The position numbers were made by a program, and so were the translations under genes. From assembly GCA_963842945.1 (NCBI GenBank), contig CAWJIM010000019.1, positions 384,001-448,000 of the forward strand: DNA of 64,000 bases. The letters run 5' to 3'. This DNA is from an uncultured Gemmatimonadales bacterium (GTDB taxonomy: Bacteria > Gemmatimonadota > Gemmatimonadetes > Gemmatimonadales > GWC2-71-9). The notes under the pieces were generated by a model, which had not been told where the DNA came from, made no database searches, and was given only the letters and a program-made list of their open reading frames with translations. Shown here piece after piece: positions 10,356 to 21,789 of this stretch; position 1 is the stretch's first letter, and each line of letters begins with the position of its first letter.

Positions 10356-11365
10356 TGAAAGTCGCGATCCTCTTCGATGCCGGTAGCGAAGAGTGGAGTC
10401 CCCAGGACGTGGCCGCGGTGGTGGCCAATGTCCACGAGGTGCGCGATGTGCTCCGGCGGCGGGGGCACGAGGTGGAGCTCCTGCCCGTCCGGTACGGCGA
10501 TTTCCGCTGGCTCTCCCGGGTACGGCGCTCCGATCTGGTCTTCAATCTCTGCGAGGGCATCAACGGGCATGCCCGGTTCGAGGATCTGGTCGTGGGCACC
10601 CTCGAGCTGACCGGCGTCCCCTTCACCGGGTGCCTGGCCTGGCCCACCACGGTCTGCCATCGCAAGCACGTGGCCAATACCCTGCTCTCGTCGGCTGGTG
10701 TGCCGGTGCCGGCCTTCACCCTGGCCCAGGCCAACAAGGGACCGGCCGAGTTCCCCCTTCCTGCCATCGTGAAGCCGGCCGCCGAAGACGCCAGCGTCGG
10801 CATCGACAACAGTGCCGTGTGCACCAGCAAGCGTGCCCTCAAGCGGAGGGTCGCCCAGATGCTGGAGCAGTTCGAGGAGGTCGTCATCCAGGAATACGTC
10901 GCCGGACGCGAATTCAACGTCGGCTTCGTGGGCAAGCGGATGCTGCCCATCGCCGAGATCCGGTTCGACGATCTGCCCGAGGGAACCTGGCCCATCGTGA
11001 GCTACGCGGCCAAGTGGATCCCGGGGAGCCCGGAGGATGAGGGCACCATCCCGGTCTGTCCGGCCGAGCTGGAGACGGACCTCCATCAGCGGATCTCCCA
11101 GGTAGCCCGCACGGCCTGGGAGCAGATGTCCGACGGCGAAGGCTACGGCCGCATCGATATGCGTCTGAGCGAGGACGGCCAGCCTTACGTCCTCGAGGTC
11201 AATCCTACCCCGGACCTCTCCAGCAACGCGGGCCTGGCCCGGATGGGCCGCGCCTTCGGCTGGAGCTACGACGACCTGGTCATGCAGATCGTTGACGAGG
11301 CACTCACTCGCTCGCAGAGCCATCGGGCAGCCGCGGCTCTGGTCAGCGGGGTGTCCGCCGCTTGA
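10355..11365 (+). CDS. D-Ala-D-Ala ligase-like ATP-grasp ligase 2
   Basis: VFNLCEG, IVKPAAEDASVGI, GREFNV, GRIDMR, EVNPTPD; TGATG coupling. Confidence 0.88.
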   Translation: MKVAILFDAGSEEWSPQDVAAVVANVHEVRDVLRRRGHEVELLPVRYGDFRWLSRVRRSDLVFNLCEGINGHARFEDLVVGTLELTGVPFTGCLAWPTTVCHRKHVANTLLSSAGVPVPAFTLAQANKGPAEFPLPAIVKPAAEDASVGIDNSAVCTSKRALKRRVAQMLEQFEEVVIQEYVAGREFNVGFVGKRMLPIAEIRFDDLPEGTWPIVSYAAKWIPGSPEDEGTIPVCPAELETDLHQRISQVARTAWEQMSDGEGYGRIDMRLSEDGQPYVLEVNPTPDLSSNAGLARMGRAFGWSYDDLVMQIVDEALTRSQSHRAAAALVSGVSAA

Positions 11366-11862
11366 GCGGCACCATTGTCTCCCCCCATCTTCGCGATCTC
11401 ACTCAAGCCGACCGGGAGCGCATCGAGGCGATCACCCGGTCGGTGGGACTGTTCCGCGAAGATGAAATCGGGATCGCGCTCGAGGTCTTCGATGAGGCAG
11501 TGGGGGCCGGACCGGCCAACACCTATGACCTACTCGGCGCAGAGCTGGACGGCGGCCTCGTCGGCTGGATCTGCTGGGGTCCGACTCCCTGCACCCTTGG
11601 CACCTACGACCTCTACTGGATGGCGGTCGATCCCGGAGCTCAGGGCACCGGGGTCGGAACCGCGCTGCTGCGGGAGATGGAGCGGCGGCTCGTAGGAATC
11701 GCCCGGCTCATCGTCGTCGAGACCGCCGGGCGGGCGGACTATGGGGCCACCCGGGCGTTCTATCGGGCCCGGGGCTACTCGCCGGTCTCGGTCATCCCGG
11801 ACTTCTATGCGCCCGGGGACGATCAGGTGGTGTTTGTGAAAAACGTGAGCGGTGAACGGTGA
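11362..11862 (+). CDS. GNAT family N-acetyltransferase
   Basis: YWMAVDPGAQGTGVGTALL acetyl-CoA motif, FYRARGY. Confidence 0.9.
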   Translation: MSGTIVSPHLRDLTQADRERIEAITRSVGLFREDEIGIALEVFDEAVGAGPANTYDLLGAELDGGLVGWICWGPTPCTLGTYDLYWMAVDPGAQGTGVGTALLREMERRLVGIARLIVVETAGRADYGATRAFYRARGYSPVSVIPDFYAPGDDQVVFVKNVSGER

Positions 11863-11944
11863 GCGGTAAACGGTAAACGGGAGAGAGACCGGGATGAGGG
11901 CTCATCGGCCCCGTCCCGTTGACCGCTCACTGTTTACCGTTCAC
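11845..11944. repeat. inverted heptamer array (GTRARCG x5 ... CGYTYAC-like x4)
   Basis: GTGAGCG GTGAACG GTGAGCG GTAAACG GTAAACG ... CGTTGAC CGCTCAC TGTTTAC CGTTCAC; contains the GNAT TGA stop. Confidence 0.85.
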
Positions 11945-11959
11945 GCTCTTGGAGGGACT

Positions 11960-13085
11960 ATGGCGGAGACCTGGCAAGAAGTCCTCAAAAAGAACTCGAT
12001 CGCCTCGCTCGAGGCGTTGGCCCAGAAGTTCGGTCCCGAAAACTTCCCCGAGCTTGACCGTCTGCGGCAGGCGGCGGAGAACTTCGAGTTCCGGATCTCG
12101 CCGGCCATGGTCGAACTGATCAAGTCGCCCAACGACCCGATCTGGCGTCAGTACGTTCCCTCGGTCGAAGAGCTGGACGTGGTGGACGGTATGGTGGACT
12201 CGCTCAACGAGGACGCCGACAGTCCGGTTCCCAACATCACCCATCGCTACCCTGATCGGGCGCTCTTTCTGGTCTCTCCCGTCTGCGCCACCTACTGCCG
12301 CTTCTGCACTCGCCGGCGGAAGGTGGGCGACCCGGAGAAGATCCCCATGTCGCAGTTCGAGAGCGCCTTCCAGTATCTGGAGGCGCACACCGAGATCCGC
12401 GACGTCATCATGTCGGGGGGCGATCCGCTGCTGCTCAACGACCGGCGGCTCGAGGCCATCCTCACCCGGCTCAGGGCCATTCCCCATCTCCAGATCATCC
12501 GGATCGGGAGCCGGATTCCCTGTCATCTGCCGGAGCGGATCACGCCCGAGCTCTGCGCCATGCTCAAGCGGTTCCACCCGCTCTTCATCAATACTCACTT
12601 CAACCATCCCGACGAGCTGACCCCAGCCGCGGTAGCGGGCTTGGGCCGGCTGGCCGATGCCGGCATCCCGCTGGGCTGCCAGACGGTGCTGCTGAAGGGC
12701 GTGAACGACACTCCCGCCGTCATGATGGAGCTGATGCATCGCCTCCTGATGGCGCGGGTCCGGCCCTACTACATCTACATGGCCGACCAGGTGGCTGGGG
12801 CCGAGCACTTTCGGACGACAGTCCAGACGGGGATCGAGATCATGCGGGCTCTCCGCGGCTGGACCAGCGGCTTGGCCATCCCCTACTTCGTCATCGACGC
12901 CCCGGGCGGCGGGGGCAAGATCCCGATCCTGCCGGAATACGTCGAGAGCATGAATGAGGACGAGGTGGTGCTCAAGAACTTCCGGGGCGAGCGCTACATC
13001 TATCGTCAGCCGAGGGAAGAGGCGGGGGTCATCGAGCTGAAGAAGCCCCGGAAGCGAGCCACGAGGAGACGGAAGACCGCGTACA
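11960..13085 (+). CDS. kamA: KamA family radical SAM/PLP enzyme (lysine 2,3-aminomutase-like); 3' end approximate
   Basis: THRYPDR, CATYCRFC, SGGDPL, THFNHP, PYY, DAPGGGGK; the ORF reads through to 13855, probably from a lost stop near RRRKTA. Confidence 0.88.
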
Positions 13086-13099
13086 CCACGGGCTACCTC

Positions 13100-14691
13100 G
13101 CGACCCATCTTCCATCTCCCATTCAACCCGCTGGCCCACGAATACGGATCGATCTTCACATCCGACAATCTCCGGCTGACCGCGGCGACATTGGCCAGCG
13201 AGTAGAGGAAGATCGCGGGCACGTCGGCATTCAGCGTGTCCATCGCCTCACGCCAGACTCCCTTCGCCTTTCCGGCACCCTCCTCCAGCGACGCTGCCCG
13301 TACCAGCGAGTCGAACGCGGGATTTCCATAGTGCCCGTAGTTCAGCGCCGCCCAGCCGGATCGGGTCCACTGGTCACCCAGTCCCCGGGGACTGGGCTCA
13401 TCCAGGTACGCGCCGATGTAGCTGTCGAAGCGCCCCTTGGCCAATCGCTCCTGAAATACTGGAAACTCGACCGTGGTCACCGTCGCCGGCACGCCCACCC
13501 GTCGCCAGGCCTCTTGTATGGCCACGGCAAGCTGCCGCCGGGTGGCGCTGGTAGCGGGAACCAGAATATCGATGCTCCGCAAAGACTGTCGCGCCTTGAT
13601 CCGGCCGATCTCCTGTCTTGCTCGAGCGGTGTCGAACGGCAGTGGCGAATCCCGTCGTCCCAGATCCAAAGCAACTGTGACATCGGTCCCGGTGGCGGCT
13701 TGGTTCCCTCCCCAAAGAGCGCCGTGGCCAGCGTCCGGCGGTCCACCGCCTGGGCCAGGGCCTGGCGCAGCTGCCGGTTCCCCAGATGCGGATGGGCCCG
13801 ACCTCTGGCGTCGGCAACGTTGAATGCCAGGAACCCGTACACGCCGGCCGGGTAGGTGATCAGCCGGAAGCTGGAGTCGCGAGCCACCCGCGCTGTGCGC
13901 TCTTTCGAGCCCACCGTCTCCATCAGGTCAGCCTGATGAGCCAACAGCAGATTGAGCGCAGCGTCGGGGTCAGGCGCGAACCGCCAGATGGCCCGGCGAA
14001 TCGAAGGCTTCTCGCCGGTCCACGCCGTATCCGCCGCAAGCGTCAGGAAGCTGCCGCGCCCCCAGTTCTGAATCCGGTAGGGCCCACTACCGACCAGATG
14101 TGAGAGGCTGGTGTCGGCCTCCCAACGCTTCCGCGGGATCGAGTCCCAGACATGCTTCGGCAAGACCCTGACATGGTAGGTGGCGTCGTACAGCTGCTCC
14201 GGTGAGCGCTCGCTGAACCCCACCCGCACTGTCATGGAGTCCTCCGCGGTCGCAGTGACCTTGCCGGCCAAATAGCTCTGGGCTCCCGACGCCAGCGTCG
14301 AGTCGCTGAAGACGTCGAACGAGAAGACCACGTCCTCCGCCAGCACCGGCCGACCGTCCTGCCAGCGGGCGTTCGGCCGGAGACGAAACCGCCAGTTCAG
14401 GGAGTCGACTCGCTCCCAGCGCTCGGCCAGCCCCGGCCGGTAGGCGCTCTGGTCAACCGGCGAAGCGCCAGGCGACAGGTAGGCCAGCCGCTCGTAGATC
14501 TGATCGCTGATGTCGCGGGCCACGGTTTCACTCACCAGCGGAGGGATGAGCGTCGAAGGCTCACCAGTCGCGGCAATGACTACCGTCGAACACTCGGGGC
14601 AATCCTTTCCCCGCTCTCCGCAGCTCGCCAGCCATCCGCCGAGCCATAGTAGAAGTGTTGTCCGGAGCGCTGACCTCATTGAGTGCCTCAT
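13100..14691 (-). CDS. peptide ABC transporter substrate-binding lipoprotein (OppA/DppA, SBP family 5), frameshifted near 13650
   Basis: Lipobox WLASC; PGLAERWE, FRLRPNARWQDG, VGSGPY, LRQALAQAVDR; C-half in ORF 11927..13669 (Y.NPAFD..V, DVPAIFLY); 3' end approximate. Confidence 0.85.
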
Positions 14692-14769
14692 GGAAGGATG
14701 AAAAGCCGATCGCCCCACCCGGAACAGCTCAAGCTCAGGTCGGAGAATACAGCAACATATAACTTTGGC

Positions 14770-14784
14770 TCAAAGGGCATGCCC
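14770..14784 (-). promoter_or_regulatory. possible sigma54-like -24/-12 element upstream of the SBP gene
   Basis: GGGCATGCCCTTTGA (GG-N10-GA, one mismatch at -12); resembles the element at 18961-18975. Confidence 0.3.
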
Positions 14785-14859
14785 GTGCAGCCACTGTGCG
14801 CTTGTGCTCGCCCTGGTGGGTGGGCTCTGCAGCGATGCAAGGGGAAGGACCTGCGGGGA

Positions 14860-16473
14860 CTAGGCCGCGGCGGACATCCTGCCGATCGACCGAAGGAAAG
14901 CCTCGAAGATGTCGGGCCGCCACCAGCTACGGCATTCCTGCATCCGGCCGAGCGCGTCGGCCACGGTCAGCGCGCCGCGATAGCTCCGGCTGGTGGTCAG
15001 CGCGTCGAACACGTCCACGATGCAGATGATCTGGGCATTGACCGGGATCTCGTCGCCCTTGAGCCGGTCGGGGTATCCCGTCCCGTCGTACTTCTCGTGG
15101 TGCCAGCGAATGATCGGCTTGATGTCCCAGGGAAATTCCACCGTCGCGAGCAGCTCGAGCCCCCAGACCGGGTGCATCTGAATTACCCGGAACTCCTCCG
15201 GCGTGAGCGAGCCCGGCTTGTTGAGGACCTCGTGCGGCACCCGGACCTTGCCCAGATCGTGCAGATACGCGCCGATCCGGATGGTGGTCTGCTGCTGCTC
15301 GTCCAGCCCCAGCTCGCGGGCCACGCCAAGGGCATAATCGGCTACCCGCTCGCAGTGACCGAAGGTGTAGCTGTCCGACGATTCAATTGATTGACCCCAC
15401 TCGCGAACCACCGCGAAGTAGGTCTCTTCCAGCTTGAGCACTTTGGTCGAGACGTCCACCAGGTCCACCCGAGCGTCGAGCCGCCCGAACAGCCGGTGCG
15501 CCGCGTTCAGCAGCTTCAGCGCCTCCTGGTTCCGCCCCATGCTCTGATAAAGCAGGGCCAATTCCCGAGACGCTTCCGCCTCGCTCAGGATCGAGCCGGT
15601 GCTCACCGCCAGATCCACCGCCGAGCGGAGCCGGGACTCGGCCAGCGCATGCCGTCCGGTTTCCCGGTACACTCGCCCGATCAGCTTGTAGGCATCAGCC
15701 TTGTCCAGCCGGGAGCCCACCTGATCGAAGATGCCGAGCGCGGCCTCCGCATTCTGCCGGGCCTGCTCGTAATGTTGGCGAGCCAGGTAGACCTCGGCGT
15801 GGTTCAGCAGCCCCAACCCCTGGAGGTGGATGTCGCCGATCGACTTGGCCATGTCCAGGCTGCGGCGGAAGTAACCGTCGGCGTCGTCCCACAGCTCGCG
15901 GTCGGCGCTCACCATGCCGAGGTTGTGATAGGCAATGGCGCAGCCGCGGTCGTCGGCGATGCTCTCGAAGGCGCCCAGTGAGCGCTGGTAGTGAGCCAGG
16001 GCTTCGGCCAGAGCACCCTGGATGTTGGCCAGAATGCCCAGGTTCTGCTCGGTCCGTCCCCGGAGCTCGGCGCTGGCTCCGCCCAGCTCCAGTGCCCGGT
16101 AGAACTTCTCCCTTGCCTGCTCGATGGCGCCGGCCTCGAAGTCGAACCCGGCGAGCGCATTGAGGGCTTCGGCGGCCAGCACCGAATCGCCCATGAGCAG
16201 GCCGGTCTCGTAGCTCTTCTGGCAAAGCGAGCGGGCCCGATCGCCTTCATTGCGGTGATGGTGAACCACTCCCAGCCGGCGCAGCGCCTCGGCCAGCACC
16301 CCACGCTCGCCGGTGCGTTCGGCCGCCTCGATCGCGGCGGTGTAACGCTGCACCGCCTCGGTCATGGCGCCGGCGCGCTCGTGGGCCCGGGCCAGCTGCA
16401 GGAGCTCGGCGGCGGAGGTCAGCTCCGCCGATGGCTTCAGCTTGGGGGGGATGCGCTCGCCCGGGCTCTTCAT
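14860..16473 (-). CDS. TPR-repeat HD-GYP phosphodiesterase
   Basis: About 340 aa of TPR-like helices, then HCERVA, LHDLGK, HPVWG, HHEKYDGTGYP, IVDVFDALT. Confidence 0.92.
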   Translation of the reverse strand: MKSPGERIPPKLKPSAELTSAAELLQLARAHERAGAMTEAVQRYTAAIEAAERTGERGVLAEALRRLGVVHHHRNEGDRARSLCQKSYETGLLMGDSVLAAEALNALAGFDFEAGAIEQAREKFYRALELGGASAELRGRTEQNLGILANIQGALAEALAHYQRSLGAFESIADDRGCAIAYHNLGMVSADRELWDDADGYFRRSLDMAKSIGDIHLQGLGLLNHAEVYLARQHYEQARQNAEAALGIFDQVGSRLDKADAYKLIGRVYRETGRHALAESRLRSAVDLAVSTGSILSEAEASRELALLYQSMGRNQEALKLLNAAHRLFGRLDARVDLVDVSTKVLKLEETYFAVVREWGQSIESSDSYTFGHCERVADYALGVARELGLDEQQQTTIRIGAYLHDLGKVRVPHEVLNKPGSLTPEEFRVIQMHPVWGLELLATVEFPWDIKPIIRWHHEKYDGTGYPDRLKGDEIPVNAQIICIVDVFDALTTSRSYRGALTVADALGRMQECRSWWRPDIFEAFLRSIGRMSAAA

Positions 16474-16560
16474 CAGTAGGACACCGCGTAACGGGAAATG
16501 TGGTGGATCAGGCTACCCGCTTATAGTGTCGGACGTTGTCGCAATTCTTGTAGCTCTAGC
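16473..16560 (-). pseudogene. decayed 3' remnant of a ZU5-like lipoprotein gene
   Basis: Minus strand reads SYKNCDNVRHYKRVA, then out of frame IHHISRYAVSY*, matching SYENC...IEHFSRYAVAY* of the upstream paralogs; its TGA overlaps the HD-GYP ATG. Confidence 0.8.
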
Positions 16561-16571
16561 TGACGTTCCAG

Positions 16572-17636
16572 CTACGCAAGACTCTCCTCCACCTGGTTGA
16601 TCCGGGTAGCGACATCCACCAGATCGCGCCGGGCATCCAGCCGGCCAAACAGGGTACGGGCAATGTTCAGATAGGCCAGCGCCTCCTGCCCTCGGCCCAT
16701 GGCCTGATAAAGCAACGCCATTTCCCGCGCCACCTCCGCCTCGGTCAGGATGGAGCCGGTGCTGGCCGCCAGCTCCATGGCGCTCCGGAGCCGCGACTCC
16801 GCCAGGGGGTAGCGGCCGGTCTCTCGATAGGTTCGGCCGATCACTCGGTACGCGTCGGCCTTGTCGATCTGGCTGCCCAGCTGATCGAAGATCCCCAGGG
16901 CCGACTCGGCGCTATGCCGCGCCTGGTCGTAGTCCTGCCGGGCCAGGTGGACCTCGGCGTAATTCAGCAGCCCCAGGGCTTCCAGATGGAGGTCGCCGAG
17001 CGCCCGGGCGATTCCCAGGCAGAGCCGGAAGTAGCGGTCGGCATCGTCCCACCGCTCGCAGTCAGCACTCACCATCCCGAGGTTGTGATAGGCGATCGCG
17101 CAGCCACGGTCGTCCCCAATGCTCTCGAATGAGAGGAGGGACTGGCGATAATGCGCGATTGCCTCGTCCGGGTCGCCCTGGACGTTGGCCAGGATGCCGA
17201 GGTTCTGCTCAGCCCGTCCTCGGAGATGGGCGCTCGCTCCGCCCAGCTGCAGGGCCTCCTGGAACTTCTCCTTGGCCGAGTGCATGGACCCGCTCTCCAG
17301 ATCGAACCCGGCGAGCGCGTTCAAGGCCTCGGCCGCCAGCACCGGGTCGCCCAGATCCACCGCGATCTTGTGGCTTCGCTCGCACATCTGTCGGGCCAGA
17401 ACCGGCTGGCTCCGACGGTGATGCACGATCCCCGAGCGGCGCAACGACTCGGCCACGATGGCCCGTTCACTGGCCCGTTCGGCGGCCTCGACCGCCGCGG
17501 TGTAGCACTGCAGAGCCTCGGCCATGCAGCCGCCCAGCTCGTGGGCCCGTCCTTCCCGAAGGAATTCCGCGGCGCGAGTGGACCCCTTGTCCTCGGTCCA
17601 CCGGGCCAGCGGGAACGATCGCAGTCTGTTTCTCAC
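16572..17636 (-). CDS. TPR-repeat protein, paralog of the HD-GYP sensor domain with no output domain
   Basis: Colinear with the first ~350 aa of 14860..16473 (LAAEALNALAGFD, EQNLGILAN, DDRGCAIAYHNLGMVSAD, ESRLRSA, LFGRLDAR); ends where HD-GYP begins. Confidence 0.9.
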   Translation of the reverse strand: MRNRLRSFPLARWTEDKGSTRAAEFLREGRAHELGGCMAEALQCYTAAVEAAERASERAIVAESLRRSGIVHHRRSQPVLARQMCERSHKIAVDLGDPVLAAEALNALAGFDLESGSMHSAKEKFQEALQLGGASAHLRGRAEQNLGILANVQGDPDEAIAHYRQSLLSFESIGDDRGCAIAYHNLGMVSADCERWDDADRYFRLCLGIARALGDLHLEALGLLNYAEVHLARQDYDQARHSAESALGIFDQLGSQIDKADAYRVIGRTYRETGRYPLAESRLRSAMELAASTGSILTEAEVAREMALLYQAMGRGQEALAYLNIARTLFGRLDARRDLVDVATRINQVEESLA

Positions 17637-17638
17637 GT

Positions 17639-18183
17639 TCAGTAGGCCACCGCGTAACGAGAGAAATGCTCGATCGGGCTGGTGACGTACTCGTACTTTG
17701 GGTAGTCCAGCGAGAACAACGGCTGGAGAATCGAGAGCCCCTCGCTGGTGTAGACGATGCCCTTCGGGCCGGCCACCGCGGCGCAGTTCTCGTAGCTCAT
17801 CCTGAGCTCGGCCGGCCGGGCAAACTTCAGCCCCTCAGGACTGAAGCGCACCGAATTGACCGGGCCGGTGATCTGCTCCGCCACAATCTTCACGTCCCTC
17901 GACAGCGCCCCGGCAGGAATGCGCAGGACGTGCTTTCCGACCTGTACCTCACCGCCTTTGCGCCCCACTACCTCGCTGCGGACGAGATACTTCTGCGGGC
18001 TGCAGGCGAGCAGTACATCGGCTGCCCCCTGAGGGACCAGGCCCGTCTTGGAGAAGGAAGAGGTGATTGCTCATTCGAGACAGTTGATGGTCCGGTCGGC
18101 TCGAAGTCACCGGTGGTACAGCTCACCGCCACGCTCAGCCCGAGTATCAGGCCGAGCAGTGGCCGGATCCGCATTGATCTCAT
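17639..18183 (-). CDS. ZU5-like lipoprotein 2 with C-terminal HFSRYAVAY (frameshift near 18065)
   Basis: Lipobox VAVSC; after the shift LLACSPQKY..VGRKGGEV..LRIPAGAL..VRFSPEGLKFARPAEL..IEHFSRYAVAY. Confidence 0.8.
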
Positions 18184-18197
18184 CGCGCCGTCCTGGG

Positions 18198-18794
18198 TTA
18201 GTAGGCCACCGCGTAGCGGGAGAAATGGTCGATTGGAGCACTGACGGTACGCGACCGGAACAGGTCGAGCGACCGCAAGACCTCCAGGACTTTGAGCTGC
18301 TCGTCGGTGTAGACGATCTTTTTCTGTAGCAGCACCAGCGCGCAGTTCTCGTAGTTCATCGTGAGTACCGCAGGCTTCTGGAACTGCAGGCCCTCAGGGC
18401 CGAAGCGGACCGAGTTGGTCTTCCCGGGGACTTGTTCCGCGGTGATCCTTACCCGCTCGGTCAGGGCACCGCGGGGAATGAAGAGCGAGTTCCTGCCCAC
18501 GGTGATGAGCCCGCCCTCGGGACCGATCGTTTCGCTGTCGCTGTCGTAGGGCAGGGCAGAACAGGTGAGCAGGTCGGTCACCGAGCCCACCGTCCCCACC
18601 ACCGTGTTGGTCAAATCGCCTACGGTGTTGGTGAGGCCACCGGTGAGATCCCCGATCAGGCCGAACTGAGGCTGCGGCTGATCCGACTCCACGAGCGGAG
18701 CCTCGGTTAGCGCCGTATCGCTCGAGGTACAACTCACCCCGGCGAAGAGCAGCAGAGAGAATCCGATGACGGAGAGTCTGCGAGTCCAGCTCAT
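18198..18794 (-). CDS. ZU5-like lipoprotein 1 with C-terminal HFSRYAVAY
   Basis: Lipobox AGVSC; IGPEGG..LFIPRGAL..VRFGPEGLQFQKPAVL ZU5-like pattern; ends IDHFSRYAVAY; alternative in-frame start at 18872. Confidence 0.85.
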   Translation of the reverse strand: MSWTRRLSVIGFSLLLFAGVSCTSSDTALTEAPLVESDQPQPQFGLIGDLTGGLTNTVGDLTNTVVGTVGSVTDLLTCSALPYDSDSETIGPEGGLITVGRNSLFIPRGALTERVRITAEQVPGKTNSVRFGPEGLQFQKPAVLTMNYENCALVLLQKKIVYTDEQLKVLEVLRSLDLFRSRTVSAPIDHFSRYAVAY

Positions 18795-18960
18795 GGCGCT
18801 ACTCCAGGCTAGGGTGAAGAGCATGCGACGATACCGCGACCGCTGGGCGGCCGCCGAACGGATCGGGCGCATGGAGCCTTTCCCCTTTAACCGGGGCTGA
18901 GGCTTGACATGCGCTGCTCGTTCGGTACGCGGAACTTTAAGTCAGGCGGGCACTTAGCGG

Positions 18961-18975
18961 GCAAGGAGCATGCCC
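18961..18975 (-). promoter_or_regulatory. sigma54-type -24/-12 promoter candidate
   Basis: GGGCATGCTCCTTGC = GG-N10-GC with TTGC, about 90-170 nt upstream of the lipoprotein starts. Confidence 0.55.
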
Positions 18976-19196
18976 CTCAAAATCGCGGGTGTCAGTAGAT
19001 TTTGGCGGCTAAATACCTTGCGATCGGGAGTCTTCGGGCAATTCAAAACTTGACGGGTCGGTGAGCCGAAAATCGTCTGATTTCCCGACGATGTGCAAAG
19101 AAGCGTGCTGCGGAATTCCGCGCGGTAGGACATGGCATCTTGCTGCGATTTGCCAGCGAAGTTGTGGTGCAGCGGGTTGGCGGTCAGGTTCGCCGG

Positions 19197-19563
19197 CTAG
19201 ACGGCGAAGCCATGACGGGCGCTCCGCAGCACGACGGCATAGACCGCCAGGTTCAGCCCGATCACCAACCCAGGCCCAGCACCAGCTGAACGTTCCGGGT
19301 CAGTCCTGAAGGGTACAGCACCGGCAGCAGGTAATGCTCGACGAATCCTCCCTGGTAGCCCTGCAGCCCGGCGCTCTCCCGCAGCCGCTTCTCCAGTGGT
19401 GTCAGCGGGCAGATCCAGCCGACCAGCTCGATGAGCGCACCATAGAGCGGCCACCGGCAGGTGCACATACGCCAGCCTTCGGCCACCGCAGCGCCAGCAG
19501 CCCGCCGAAAACGACGAAGAGGACGAAGGCAAAGTGAACGAGAACGACCAGGTCGGCGAGCAT
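19197..19563 (-). CDS. DUF2784 membrane protein (frameshifted)
   Basis: MLADLVVLVHFAF.., WICPLTPLE, GGFVEHYL motifs across frames. Confidence 0.8.
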
Positions 19564-19573
19564 CTAATAAAAA

Positions 19574-19652
19574 GCGTGAGCGGGACAAGGGCGAGCGTGA
19601 GCGGTAAGCGGGAACAACCTCACCGCTTACGCCTGTCCTAGTCCCGCTTACG
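19574..19652. repeat. inverted heptamer-like array (GTRAGCG / CGCTYAC)
   Basis: GTGAGCG/GTAAGCG units facing CGCTTAC units; includes the EF-G TAA stop. Confidence 0.65.
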
Positions 19653-21696
19653 CTGGTTGCAGTTCTCGCTCCTTCTGATTCTCCGCCGCCACCTTCGCCG
19701 AGACCTCGGGCGGCGCCTCGGCGTACCCGTGGAACTTCTGCCGGTGGGTGCCCCGCCCGTGGGTGATCGAGTGCAGCGTGGTGGAGTACTTGTACAGCTC
19801 CGCTTCGGGTACCACTGCCTTGACCTTGGTCAGCCGTCCATCCTGCTCGGTGCCGAGGATGTGCCCCCGGCGCGAGCTGAGGTCGCCCATCACGTCACCC
19901 AGCACGTCGTCCGGGGTCCAGACCTCCACGTCTATCAGCGGCTCCAGCAGCACCGGCCGGGCCTTGGGAGTCACATTCCGGAAGGCCATGATGCCCGCCA
20001 TCTTGAACGACATCTCGTTGGAGTCCACGTCGTGATATGACCCGTCGAAGCACTCGACCTTGAAATCGACTAACGGATATCCGGCAATGACTCCTCGGAC
20101 CGCTGCCTCCTGGATCCCGCGATCCACCGCCGGGATGTACTTGTTGGGGATCACGCCCCCGACGATCTCGTCCACAAACTCGTAGCCCGACCCTCGTGGC
20201 AACGGTGCTACCCGGATCCAGCAGTCGCCGTACTGGCCCCGGCCGCCGGACTGTTTCTTGTGTTTCCCCTGGCCCTCCGCCCTTCCTTTAATGGTCTCGC
20301 GATAGGCTATCCGGGGCCGGGCCAGCTCGGCATGGACCCCGAACTTCCGCTCCAGCCGGTGGAGGATGGTGTCGAAGTGCCGCTCGCCCATGCCGTGGAT
20401 CAGGGTCTGGCCCAGCTCCGAGCTGTATTCGAAGTGGAAGGTGGGATCTTCCTCATGCAGCTTGTGCAGGCCGGCAGCGAGCTTGTCCTCCTCTCCTCGC
20501 TGTTTCACCACCACCGCCGACGTGGCAACCGCCTCGGGGAACGGAATAGGCGGCAGCCTGACCGGAGCCTCCCGCCAGCAGAACGTGTCGCCGGTGTGAG
20601 TGTCCTTCAGCTTGGCCACCGAGCCAATGTCCCCGGCGGAGAGCCGCTCCACCTCCATCCGCTCCTTCCCCTGCTGAATGGAGAGGTGGTTCAGCTTCTC
20701 CACCGTCTCGTGCTCGGCGTTGAAGACCTCACCGCCGTTGCGGATCTCGCCGGTGTAAAGCCGGAACAGGGTCACGTCACCCACGTGCGACTCGGACAGC
20801 GTCTTGAACACCCGCCCCACCAGCGGCGCATCCACTGGCGGCTTCACCTCGGCGGGAGAGGGGAACAGCTCCACCATCTTCTTGAGCAGCGTGCGAGTGC
20901 CGTAGGTCAGCTCACCGCTGCCGCAGAAGAGCGGAACGATGGCGCCCTCGATCACTGCCCGCTTGATCGCCCTGATGAAAGCATCCCGCGAGATCTCCTG
21001 GCCCCCCAGGTAACGCTCGATCAGCTCGTCGTCGGTGGAGGCCACGGCCTCGGTCAGCTGCTCGGTGTACTGCTGAAACAGGGCCTGGTACTCGTCGGGA
21101 ACCGGTACGATGTCGTACTCTCCGGTCTTGGTGCCCTTCTTATAGAAGTGGCAGTGCCCGGAGAACAGGTTGATGATCCCGTGGAAGTCGTGCCCGTCGC
21201 CGATGGGAATCTCGACCGGGACGACCTTGGGGCTCAGATGGGTCTTCACATCGTTGAAGACCCGCTCGAAGTCGGCGTGCTCCTTGTCCATCAGGGATAC
21301 GAAGAGGACCCGGGGCAGGTGCAGCTGGTCGCAGACTTCCCAGACTTTTTCGGTGCCCACCTCCACCCCACCCGTCCCGCTGAGAACGACGACGGCGGCA
21401 TCGGCCGCGTTCAGGCCGCTGACGACCTCGCCGAAATAGTCGAGGTAACCCGGGGTGTCGATGAGATTGATCTTGGTGTCGAGCCACTCGGCGTAGCCGA
21501 GGCCCAGATTGATGGAGTGCTTGCGTTCGATTTCGTCGGGAGAATAGTCGGTGAGCGTCGTACCGTCTTTGATGGAACCGTGGCGTCGGCTGGCGCCGCT
21601 TACGAAGGCCAGGGCATCTACCAGGGACGTCTTTCCGCTGGCCCCGTGCCCGACAAACGCCACGTTTCTTATGGCGTTGGAGCCATAGACCTTCAT
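19648..21696 (-). CDS. fusA: elongation factor G-like protein (EF-G2 type paralog)
   Basis: GHGASGKTSL, DTPG, GMGERH, KKQSGGRGQYG, GSYHDVDS, LLEP..; not in the str operon. Confidence 0.9.
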   Translation of the reverse strand: MKVYGSNAIRNVAFVGHGASGKTSLVDALAFVSGASRRHGSIKDGTTLTDYSPDEIERKHSINLGLGYAEWLDTKINLIDTPGYLDYFGEVVSGLNAADAAVVVLSGTGGVEVGTEKVWEVCDQLHLPRVLFVSLMDKEHADFERVFNDVKTHLSPKVVPVEIPIGDGHDFHGIINLFSGHCHFYKKGTKTGEYDIVPVPDEYQALFQQYTEQLTEAVASTDDELIERYLGGQEISRDAFIRAIKRAVIEGAIVPLFCGSGELTYGTRTLLKKMVELFPSPAEVKPPVDAPLVGRVFKTLSESHVGDVTLFRLYTGEIRNGGEVFNAEHETVEKLNHLSIQQGKERMEVERLSAGDIGSVAKLKDTHTGDTFCWREAPVRLPPIPFPEAVATSAVVVKQRGEEDKLAAGLHKLHEEDPTFHFEYSSELGQTLIHGMGERHFDTILHRLERKFGVHAELARPRIAYRETIKGRAEGQGKHKKQSGGRGQYGDCWIRVAPLPRGSGYEFVDEIVGGVIPNKYIPAVDRGIQEAAVRGVIAGYPLVDFKVECFDGSYHDVDSNEMSFKMAGIMAFRNVTPKARPVLLEPLIDVEVWTPDDVLGDVMGDLSSRRGHILGTEQDGRLTKVKAVVPEAELYKYSTTLHSITHGRGTHRQKFHGYAEAPPEVSAKVAAENQKERELQPA

Positions 21697-21789
21697 GGCC
21701 TCCACCTCCTAGGAAAAGGGTATTTCCAAGGTGGCTGCCGCACTGGCGGTTGTCAAATGAGCTGGTATCAGCTGGTCGCGGGGGCTTGC

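Follow-up and report, generated by a model that had tools for sequence, protein, structure and literature searches.

Small exported lipoproteins with a predicted ZU5/GAIN-type domain are encoded next to cytoplasmic TPR proteins, of which one is fused to an HD-GYP domain, and this gene pair is kept in many Gemmatimonadota. We describe it here for the minus strand of the window, by which we mean the whole 64,000-nucleotide stretch analyzed (C19:384001-448000, from contig CAWJIM010000019.1 of an uncultured Gemmatimonadales bacterium), where 5 co-oriented genes at 13100-18975 encode two such lipoproteins, a TPR-only protein, a TPR-HD-GYP protein, and a family-5 solute-binding lipoprotein. The locus is best explained as a sigma-54-dependent operon in which one to three small ZU5/GAIN lipoproteins are followed by cytoplasmic TPR proteins, one of them HD-GYP-fused. 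The locus as first noticed is genuine and not a product of chance: there is good support for assigning the lipoprotein domain to ZU5, for a conserved HFS motif close to the C-terminus, and for the link to TPR-HD-GYP genes, and the evidence for a role of the binding protein is weak. The proposed signalling chemistry is a good hypothesis. The periplasmic lipoprotein and the cytoplasmic TPR enzyme stay paired through rearrangements, and the module contains no membrane protein. In the literature that we searched, we found no description of a lipoprotein-TPR-HD-GYP pairing, and the module may represent an undescribed signalling route from the envelope to the cytoplasm in soil Gemmatimonadota.

Results

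Lipoprotein genes and TPR genes are linked

The link between the lipoprotein genes and the TPR genes is strong. We gathered 77 loci with a close alignment of the lipoprotein (A1), all of them from Gemmatimonadales/Gemmatimonadota genome bins, and as this procedure is biased to orthologues, 20 loci of distant paralogues were sampled separately from other genomes of the phylum. Among the 72 evaluable orthologous loci (the other 5 are truncated), 70 have a TPR gene immediately downstream, starting -40 to +250 bp from the last lipoprotein gene, and L072 and L081 have it no farther than about 2 kb from the lipoprotein gene. A TPR gene is also adjacent at 16 of the 20 distant loci, where it can be co-directional (L086, L089, L090, L092-L095, L101-L103, L105), divergent (L091, L096, L097, L099), or convergent (L098), and where the partner is a TPR-HD-GYP protein, a TPR-only protein, or a TPR-HD-GYP-GGDEF-AAA_16 protein of about 1600 residues. 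With L for lipoprotein, T for TPR-only, and TH for TPR-HD-GYP, the arrangements seen are L-TH, L-T-TH, L-L-T-TH, L-L-L-T-TH, and L-T-L-TH; lipoprotein and TPR genes appear to have been duplicated together, with L-T-L-TH in L029, L041, L075, and L076 and L-L-T-TH in the window. Among the points on which the original prediction had said that it could fail are the conservation of HFS in homologues and the linkage of these homologues to TPR(-HD-GYP) genes in other genomes, and the homologues agree with it on both, as the numbers above show for the linkage.

Gene content points in the same direction. Among 301 sampled genomes of the phylum, including the unpublished genomes G057 and G182, 93 encode both the lipoprotein and the TPR domain (threshold E <= 1e-30), 9 only the TPR domain, 40 only the lipoprotein, and 159 neither, which are plain counts without a statistic, related genomes not being independent. 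Within the window's genus, both partners are present in the same 14 and absent from the same 4 of 18 genomes.

Two groups of distant loci deserve separate mention. In genus g51 (L092:3121-8064 (-), L094:2558-7402 (-), L095:9346-14184 (+)), the partner is the TPR/HD-GYP/GGDEF/AAA_16 protein of about 1600 residues, and the lipoprotein tails read HFSGY[MI]V[SA]MD. L086:7813-11894 (+) (G042:C2) has six tandem members of the lipoprotein family with differing tails (HFSQYAVTW, HFSNYAVAW, HFSLYAVSY, and others), flanked by a sigma-54 activator gene and by TPR and TPR-HD-GYP genes. This array is the best spot to seek specificity between tails and receptors.

The lipoproteins have a predicted ZU5/GAIN-type domain with an HFS motif

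Lipoprotein 1 consists of a signal peptide, a lipobox (..LFAGVS↓C), a linker of DLTxxLTNTV repeats, and a C-terminal domain of ZU5 fold. Its start was placed at the ATG that most homologues use, which yields 198 residues; an upstream ATG at 18872, preceded by a purine-rich stretch, would yield 224. In the AlphaFold2 model, which was built from an alignment of 89 diverse homologues, the predicted local distance difference test score (pLDDT) is 97-98 at residues 75-198 and about 60 at residues 1-70 with the repeat linker. A strand formed by residues 183-190 ends with H190, F191 and S192 make a turn, and residues 193-197 form the last strand, so that HFS is placed in the model with the geometry of HL↓T and HF↓S sites.

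The top Foldseek matches of the model were ZU5 domains of ankyrins (3kbu_C, E 1.7e-6; 4d8o; 3f59), of ZO-1, and of UNC5b (3g5b, E 1.7e-4), followed by GAIN domains. VIA-align gave a Z of 12.6 for ankyrin-B ZU5 (4d8o; root mean square deviation 2.4 over 113 residues), 9.2 for UNC5b (3g5b), about 8 for GAIN domains (8.2 for 4dlo_A), and 6.3 for the FIIND domain of NLRP1 (7crw_A). With the GAIN chains 4dlq_A, 5kvm_A, and 7qu8_A, the alignment stops at model residue 191, the Phe of HFS; we take these to be cleaved chains that end just before the scissile bond. On sequence level, Pfam ZU5 (PF00791) matches lipoprotein 1 with 18.7 bits (E 0.0022), below the cut-off of 21, and is found on 50% of the 164 members of one ESM Atlas cluster of relatives. 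Lipoprotein 2 has no Pfam ZU5 match, a profile search of the PDB sequences with the A2 alignment returned no ZU5 match and only chance matches to the signal peptide, and no NCBIfam family matched either lipoprotein or their paralogue on contig C21. The ZU5-like nature of the lipoproteins claimed in the original prediction is therefore borne out by the modeled fold, with its Z of 12.6 to ankyrin-B ZU5, even though the Pfam score is sub-threshold, and a ZU5/GAIN-type fold with HFS in the turn before the last strand is a well-supported prediction.

HFSRYAVAY and a stop codon close both lipoproteins of the window, although their domains share only 55% identity; the identical end on two diverged proteins, which the original prediction had pointed out, is confirmed in the sequence. 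Four copies with this tail are present in the source genome. The family is large, as a word-indexed search yielded 782 relatives, mostly of 195-199 residues, and an exhaustive search of representatives at 50% identity yielded 1156 clusters at E <= 0.001. All named records that we saw belong to Gemmatimonadota, mostly to Gemmatimonadales, and 133 of the 301 genomes have the family, often in multiple copies or tandem arrays. Of the best 150 representatives, 147 have HFS within their last 30 residues, and 126 have a lipobox-like N-terminus by a pattern of our own. The usual tail is HFS-x-Y-A-[VIL]-[AS]-[WYF] at the C-terminus, and in most members six residues follow the Ser; the motif of distant members is HFS, HLS, or HYS, with 0-15 residues beyond the last strand. 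Mean column identity in the alignment of 89 sequences is 23%, and no variation is seen at C78, G94, P133, G135, F138, C151, H190, F191, S192, and Y194, which again is the conservation of HFS that had been predicted. Taking together the fold, the invariant triad, and the experiments on MAIN domains discussed below, self-cleavage between F191 and S192 is probable.

Some further features of the lipoproteins were noted. The linker of lipoprotein 1 (18575-18730 (-)) is made of DLTGGLTNTVGDLTNTVVGT-type repeats whose count differs among homologues, and the homologue P0080 is named 'X-X-X-Leu-X-X-Gly heptad repeat protein' in one source. In the paralogue at L007:9998-10720 (-), which is G000:C21:369997-370752, a charged, coiled-coil-like linker replaces the DLT/LxxG repeats, and the tail is DHFSRYAVAY; its gene, which has no TPR neighbour, is located some 0.9 kb upstream of one for a Ser/Thr kinase that is frameshifted as assembled. 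The signal peptides resemble ordinary Sec lipoprotein signals. Export by the Tat pathway, for which an RR in the signal peptide might have spoken, was rejected: across the family just one of the Arg residues is conserved, the h-region has a strongly hydrophobic character, and the lipoprotein had no match among the NCBIfam models.

The TPR proteins

Compared by tblastn, the TPR-only protein and the TPR part of the TPR-HD-GYP protein share 67% identity, and both proteins are without signal peptide. In the TPR-HD-GYP protein, Pfam detects TPR_12 (E 2.6e-31) and HD (E 6.7e-23), HDLGK and GTGYP motifs are present in the translation, and H405, D406, H458, H459, G466, Y467, and P468 are invariant in 49 TPR-HD-GYP sequences. 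The nearest NCBIfam match, a response-regulator cyclic di-GMP (c-di-GMP) phosphodiesterase, is far below cut-off. By these motifs, the protein is a member of the HD-GYP family with intact HD and GYP motifs and a predicted cyclic-dinucleotide phosphodiesterase.

The model of the TPR-only protein has 17 helices and a pLDDT of 92.8. Its best fold matches are the TPR domains of LGN/Pins, and RapJ with PhrC (4gyo_A) is matched with a TM-score of 0.66, a value that has to be read against the generic likeness among TPR superhelices. TPR domains of LGN/Pins hold extended peptides in their groove, and ladders of Asn residues bind the peptide backbones in LGN as well as in the RRNPP receptors. In the TPR domain of our system, Asn residues recur at a spacing of about 40 residues, with N106, N145, and N185 being invariant and N225 nearly so. 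When residues 169-198 of lipoprotein 1 (alignment A2) and the whole TPR-HD-GYP protein (alignment A3) were folded together, the predicted complexes scored 0.23, 0.38, and 0.22 against a mark of 0.32, which is neutral on binding.

A putative sigma-54 promoter precedes the first lipoprotein gene

Ahead of the first lipoprotein gene, a conserved element of the -24/-12 type that sigma-54 recognizes is predicted, a point that the original prediction had missed and that is new in this analysis. The 64-kb window would be expected to contain 1.2 matches to GGCAY-N5-TTGC by chance and contains a single one, GGCATGCTCCTTGC, which taken singly is at chance level. In 67 of 70 loci, a GGCAY/TTGC motif with varying spacer is present upstream of the first lipoprotein gene, and the related loci, 950,511 bp in all, contain 77 plus-strand matches of which 10 are outside the promoter position. 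The genome has 12 Sigma54_activat matches, two of which are adjacent halves of one split gene (C19:170516-171018), and none is within C19:384001-448000. A sigma-54 activator gene is located beside the lipoprotein genes in 4 of the 20 distant loci (L086, L087, L090, L103).

The family-5 binding protein

The binding protein is a generic family-5 protein whose NCBIfam matches are all far below their cut-offs. It is encoded in 57 of the 77 orthologous loci and in 33 of the 36 that have full flanks, and 19 of the 57 loci have it upstream, 34 have it downstream, and 4 encode it on the other strand. Three loci for OppC-type permeases are present elsewhere in the genome. At L105:3983-7592 (-) (G262:C38), OppB- and OppC-type permease genes come after a gene for a family-5 binding protein; these genes are divergent from the adjoining genes for a 484-residue member of the lipoprotein family and a TPR-HD-GYP protein, and this is the only locus at which we saw permeases beside the pair.

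Discussion

A possible peptide pathway from the envelope to the TPR-HD-GYP protein

For the conserved pairing of an exported lipoprotein with a cytoplasmic TPR enzyme, the most parsimonious connection is that of the original prediction in modified form, and we tentatively propose the following one. The exported domain would cut itself between F191 and S192 and retain SRYAVAY as its last strand, i.e., as a caged peptide, which could be freed if, in the envelope, the domain were to unfold, be pulled on, or be degraded. An Opp-type transporter would then import the peptide, with the neighbouring family-5 binding protein being merely a candidate for its delivery. In the cytoplasm, the extended peptide could bind to the Asn-lined groove of the TPR domain and alter the HD-GYP activity, and thereby the level of a cyclic dinucleotide, and the TPR-only paralogue could tune the TPR-HD-GYP protein. 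The whole chain from cleavage over release, import, and TPR binding to HD-GYP control is possible and, among the explanations considered here, the likeliest, and we put it forward with reservation. That the pathway is protease-independent, with envelope damage or force as the trigger for a caged peptide that the TPR-HD-GYP protein reads, is somewhat doubtful.

Several observations weigh against this chain. A transmembrane partner or an export route for the peptide is not known. The tail S-x-Y-A-[VIL]-A-[WYF] suits a buried last strand, and its conservation therefore needs no signalling role. As the tail is identical in two (window) or three (L010) diverged co-resident paralogues and near-invariant in the family, it provides no pairing specificity. 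The cleaved strand of GAIN and MAIN domains stays bound, and release would therefore need a trigger. On the side of the gene link, L088, L100, and L104 among the 20 distant loci have no TPR neighbour (L087 ends at a contig end), the two other copies in the source genome (C21, C18) have none either, and 40 of the 133 lipoprotein-bearing genomes are without a TPR match at E 1e-30. As to the binding protein, it is absent from 3 of the 36 orthologous loci with full flanks, it is found in only one of the 20 distant loci (L105), two of the four same-genus genomes without the module (G013, G175) keep an orthologue of 60-64% identity, and in the window its gene is broken in the assembly by a frameshift and has no stop codon. 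Because of its variable position, its rarity at distant loci, and its retention without the pair, we regard the binding protein as a plausible helper and not as a core component. The original prediction had counted the OppA-like protein as part of the system, and its occurrence at a single distant locus, its persistence in half of the four module-lacking genomes, and its broken state here do not agree with a conserved core.

The original prediction had also suggested a Rap/Phr-like circuit. If this is meant as pherotype signalling, a near-invariant heptapeptide that is the same in paralogues argues against it and fits a structural strand. Quorum sensing with pherotypes in the style of Rap/Phr was judged unlikely, as the peptide hardly varies and is identical in co-resident paralogues.

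Alternative explanations

Whether it is cut or remains whole, the lipoprotein could act in the envelope only, for example in adhesion, in binding, or as a force-bearing element on its flexible linker, sharing a sigma-54 operon with the TPR-HD-GYP protein without any contact, and its tail would then never leave the fold. The single conserved promoter of the cluster would agree with this, as would the fact that cleavage products of MAIN and GAIN domains remain together and that binding is the function of the ZU5 domains that rank first by fold (ankyrin, UNC5, ZO-1); the family members without a TPR neighbour, the suitability of the tail pattern for a buried strand, and the absence of specificity in identical paralogue tails count in the same direction. 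However, co-regulation fails to explain why the pair is kept in co-directional, divergent, and convergent orientation, in varied contexts, and with varied TPR partners. It also leaves the co-loss within one genus unexplained, and it gives no reason for an invariant triad in a protein in which nothing follows the last strand. We therefore consider an exclusive envelope function rather unlikely.

A second alternative places the contact before export. The TPR domain could bind the C-terminal tail of the unexported, unfolded lipoprotein precursor and either chaperone it or sense the flux of export, with the HD-GYP domain reporting stress in secretion or lipoprotein sorting. Hop and PEX5 use TPR domains to hold on to free C-terminal peptides, and the TPR class II chaperones of type III secretion double as co-regulators. 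The tail is located exactly at the C-terminus in most of the family, the lipoprotein and TPR genes seem to duplicate together, and both partners are in one compartment before export; no uptake system would therefore be needed, which fits the weak linkage of the binding protein. Yet the invariant His-Phe-Ser is left unexplained, as cleavage requires a folded domain; the signal peptides have the appearance of the usual Sec type for lipoproteins, with no match to a Tat model; and we found no precedent in the literature searched. Binding of the precursor is quite unlikely in our view.

It is very unlikely that HFS is non-catalytic and merely kept for folding in an uncleaved ZU5 binding module, a reading with which the sub-threshold Pfam ZU5 match and the non-cleaving ankyrin and ZO-1 ZU5 domains among the top structural matches would agree, since H, F, and S are invariant at a mean column identity of 23%, distant members shift only to HLS and HYS and stay within the H-hydrophobic-S/T rule of GAIN and MAIN domains, and, according to the main text of the preprint, nearly all tested bacterial MAIN domains with the motif cut themselves (Brogan and Rudner, bioRxiv 10.64898/2026.05.12.724683).

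Comparison with known systems

MAIN domains are cut between the F and the S of HFS, as evidenced by Edman sequencing, and this cut is in a beta-turn before the last strand, with the products staying associated (Brogan and Rudner, bioRxiv 10.64898/2026.05.12.724683). As described in the main text of that preprint, MAIN proteins average about 158 kDa and are composed of a signal peptide, an adhesion or enzyme cargo, the MAIN domain, and lastly a wall anchor at the C-terminus. The lipoproteins of the window share with them the export and the predicted GAIN_B/ZU5-type beta-sandwich with an H-x-S motif. In contrast to the proteins described there, they are anchored by an N-terminal lipid and have no cargo and nothing after the last strand, with only a heptapeptide being releasable; lipoprotein 1 has its lipobox at the N-terminus, contains no other domain, and ends six residues after Ser192. 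The main text of the preprint assigns no signalling role to the C-terminal fragment and contains no mention of lipoprotein, TPR, HD-GYP, ZU5, or Gemmatimonad.

Bacterial ZU5 autopeptidases are known as predictions from polymorphic toxins and from surface proteins of large size (Zhang et al., 2012, PMC3482391; PMC8195603); in the passages of PMC3482391 that deal with them, the domain is N-terminal in large RHS toxins or part of large surface proteins, and it serves their release. Our lipoproteins resemble the ZU5 autopeptidases (PIDD, the FIIND of NLRP1/CARD8, and the ZU5 of toxins) in the fold and in the HFS-type site before the last strand. Unlike the toxin ZU5 as described in these passages, the domain is here the stand-alone C-terminal domain of a lipoprotein of about 180-200 residues, and its gene is linked to that of a cytoplasmic signalling protein. 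With the GAIN domain of adhesion G protein-coupled receptors (GPCRs) and its Stachel, it would share a self-cut last strand that is held non-covalently and whose freeing is the signal, and the Z to GAIN domains is about 8. The sequence S-R-Y-A-V-A-Y is similar to the Stachel core, T-x-F-A-V-L-M. The receptor of the strand in adhesion GPCRs is a seven-helix part of the same chain, to which it stays tethered; here, the strand would be released as a heptapeptide, with a separate TPR protein on the cytoplasmic side of the membrane as candidate receptor.

The RRNPP receptors of Firmicutes include Rap/Phr, NprR/NprX, PlcR/PapR, PrgX, Rgg, and AimR. The likeness to them is that a cytoplasmic TPR protein adjoins an exported precursor with a putative C-terminal ligand, for which Opp uptake would be the expected route. 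The differences are considerable: the precursor is here a folded lipoprotein of 181-198 residues that is putatively self-processing, and not a short pro-peptide cut by exported proteases; the output is HD-GYP or none, and not a helix-turn-helix domain, a phosphatase, or an anti-activator; and the window peptide is near-invariant without pherotypes, in a diderm host and behind a predicted sigma-54 promoter. By these features, the system of the window is not a member of the RRNPP family.

For the pair of a TPR-only and a TPR-HD-GYP gene, RcbA/RcbB of Vibrio vulnificus is a precedent, in which, as far as it is described in that report, the TPR domain represses a fused c-di-GMP enzyme and a TPR-only partner encoded beside it relieves this repression by TPR-TPR contact (PMC12282931). 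The likeness is one of description alone, and it differs in that the output of RcbA/RcbB is a GGDEF cyclase and that the parts of the report concerned mention no lipoprotein partner.

Self-cleavage of GAIN and ZU5 domains is central to mechanosensing by adhesion GPCRs and to cell-death signalling by PIDD and NLRP1 in animals. In bacteria, to our knowledge, no role other than the release of surface cargo has been ascribed to it until now. The lipoprotein of the window would be the smallest form of this chemistry, with just seven residues being releasable, and the module spans a phylum of abundant soil bacteria, with a predicted cyclic-dinucleotide phosphodiesterase under putative sigma-54 control. 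If the peptide is the signal, the envelope would be connected to the cytoplasm without a membrane receptor, as a bacterial counterpart of the tethered agonist. If the proposed chain is true, a diderm phylum would for the first time be seen to have an RRNPP-like circuit with a peptide receptor, and the C-terminal fragment of a microbial GAIN/ZU5 domain would for the first time be assigned a role in signalling. Even without peptide signalling, the pair defines a large family (the 1156 clusters) for which we found no description in the literature searched.

Layout of the locus, state of the assembly, and flanking genes

The gaps between consecutive genes of the locus are 14, 2, 98, and 141 bp, and the coordinates of its features are given in Table 1. 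No intrinsic terminators or sigma-70 promoters above chance were found in 12900-19200.

Table 1. Features of the lipoprotein-TPR locus, with positions counted in the window.
Feature	Position	Strand	Remarks
Sigma-54 type promoter (predicted), GGCATGCTCCTTGC (GG-N10-GC)	18961..18974	-	upstream of lipoprotein 1
Lipoprotein 1	18198..18794	-	198 residues; open reading frame and sequence
ZU5/GAIN-type beta-sandwich domain (predicted), lipoprotein 1 residues 75-198	18201..18572	-	fold match
HFSRYAVAY of lipoprotein 1, presumed cleavage site H190-F191↓S192 and last strand, C-terminal	18201..18227	-	read from sequence
Lipoprotein 2	17639..18183	-	frameshifted as assembled
HFSRYAVAY tail of lipoprotein 2	17642..17668	-	read from sequence
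TPR-only protein	16572..17636	-	354 residues, without signal peptide; Pfam TPR_12 E 1.2e-36
TPR-HD-GYP protein	14860..16473	-	537 residues, without signal peptide; Pfam HD_5 E 2.7e-39
HD-GYP domain, about residues 363-516 of the TPR-HD-GYP protein	14926..15387	-	Pfam
Family-5 solute-binding lipoprotein (OppA/DppA-like)	about 13100..14718	-	SBP_bac_5 E 2.5e-48; broken as assembled

The co-oriented five-gene locus with two lipoproteins, as originally predicted, holds with regard to gene order, strand, and tails, but lipoprotein 2 and the binding protein are not intact as assembled, and three assembly defects had been missed. The signal peptide and lipobox of lipoprotein 2 are in an open reading frame (17968..18183) that is out of frame with the ZU5 part (17639..18070), and comparison with L009, L010, and L011 shows that a 1-bp deletion near 18056-18060 splits the gene; the orthologue in L010 is an intact lipoprotein of 181 residues. 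The binding-protein gene has a 1-bp deletion at 13642. Furthermore, the stop codons of both the binding-protein gene and the convergent gene for a KamA-like radical-SAM protein are missing (window 13085-13125), and L010 has both stops and an 82-bp spacer between these genes, a stretch that is absent from the window and was lost either by assembly collapse or by a real deletion. Among the sequencing runs listed as matches, none was of RNA. In runs whose best DNA matches share 0.07-0.17 of the sampled words, and which hence represent relatives and not the source, one soil contig of run X2 that covers 13643 has an extra G at the deletion site of the binding-protein gene; the run contigs have no depth over bins 17950-18143, i.e., the frameshift site of lipoprotein 2 is outside their coverage. 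The source genome bin is 86.9% complete and 6% contaminated in 24 contigs, and further genes of the same bin are also split, which makes assembly error as likely as real decay for the frameshifts. For lipoprotein 2 and the binding protein, the gene defects could stem from faulty assembly or be genuine lesions.

The gene order around the locus is largely conserved among the 77 loci, with genes for an EF-G-like protein, a small open reading frame, the lipoprotein(s), TPR(-HD-GYP), the binding protein, KamA, GNAT, and ATP-grasp. Downstream of the locus in the window (10364-13100 (+)) is a cluster of an ATP-grasp protein resembling D-Ala-D-Ala ligases, a GNAT acetyltransferase, and a radical-SAM protein resembling lysine-2,3-aminomutase, which is syntenic with the locus in most relatives; the pair of KamA and GNAT resembles what we take to be the genes for the osmolyte N-epsilon-acetyl-beta-lysine. 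Upstream of the promoter are the gene for an EF-G-like GTPase of 685 residues (19648-21705 (-)) and the small open reading frame (19262-19588), likewise syntenic in most relatives. In L060, L062, L063, L067, and L080, this small open reading frame is instead located downstream of the HD-GYP gene.

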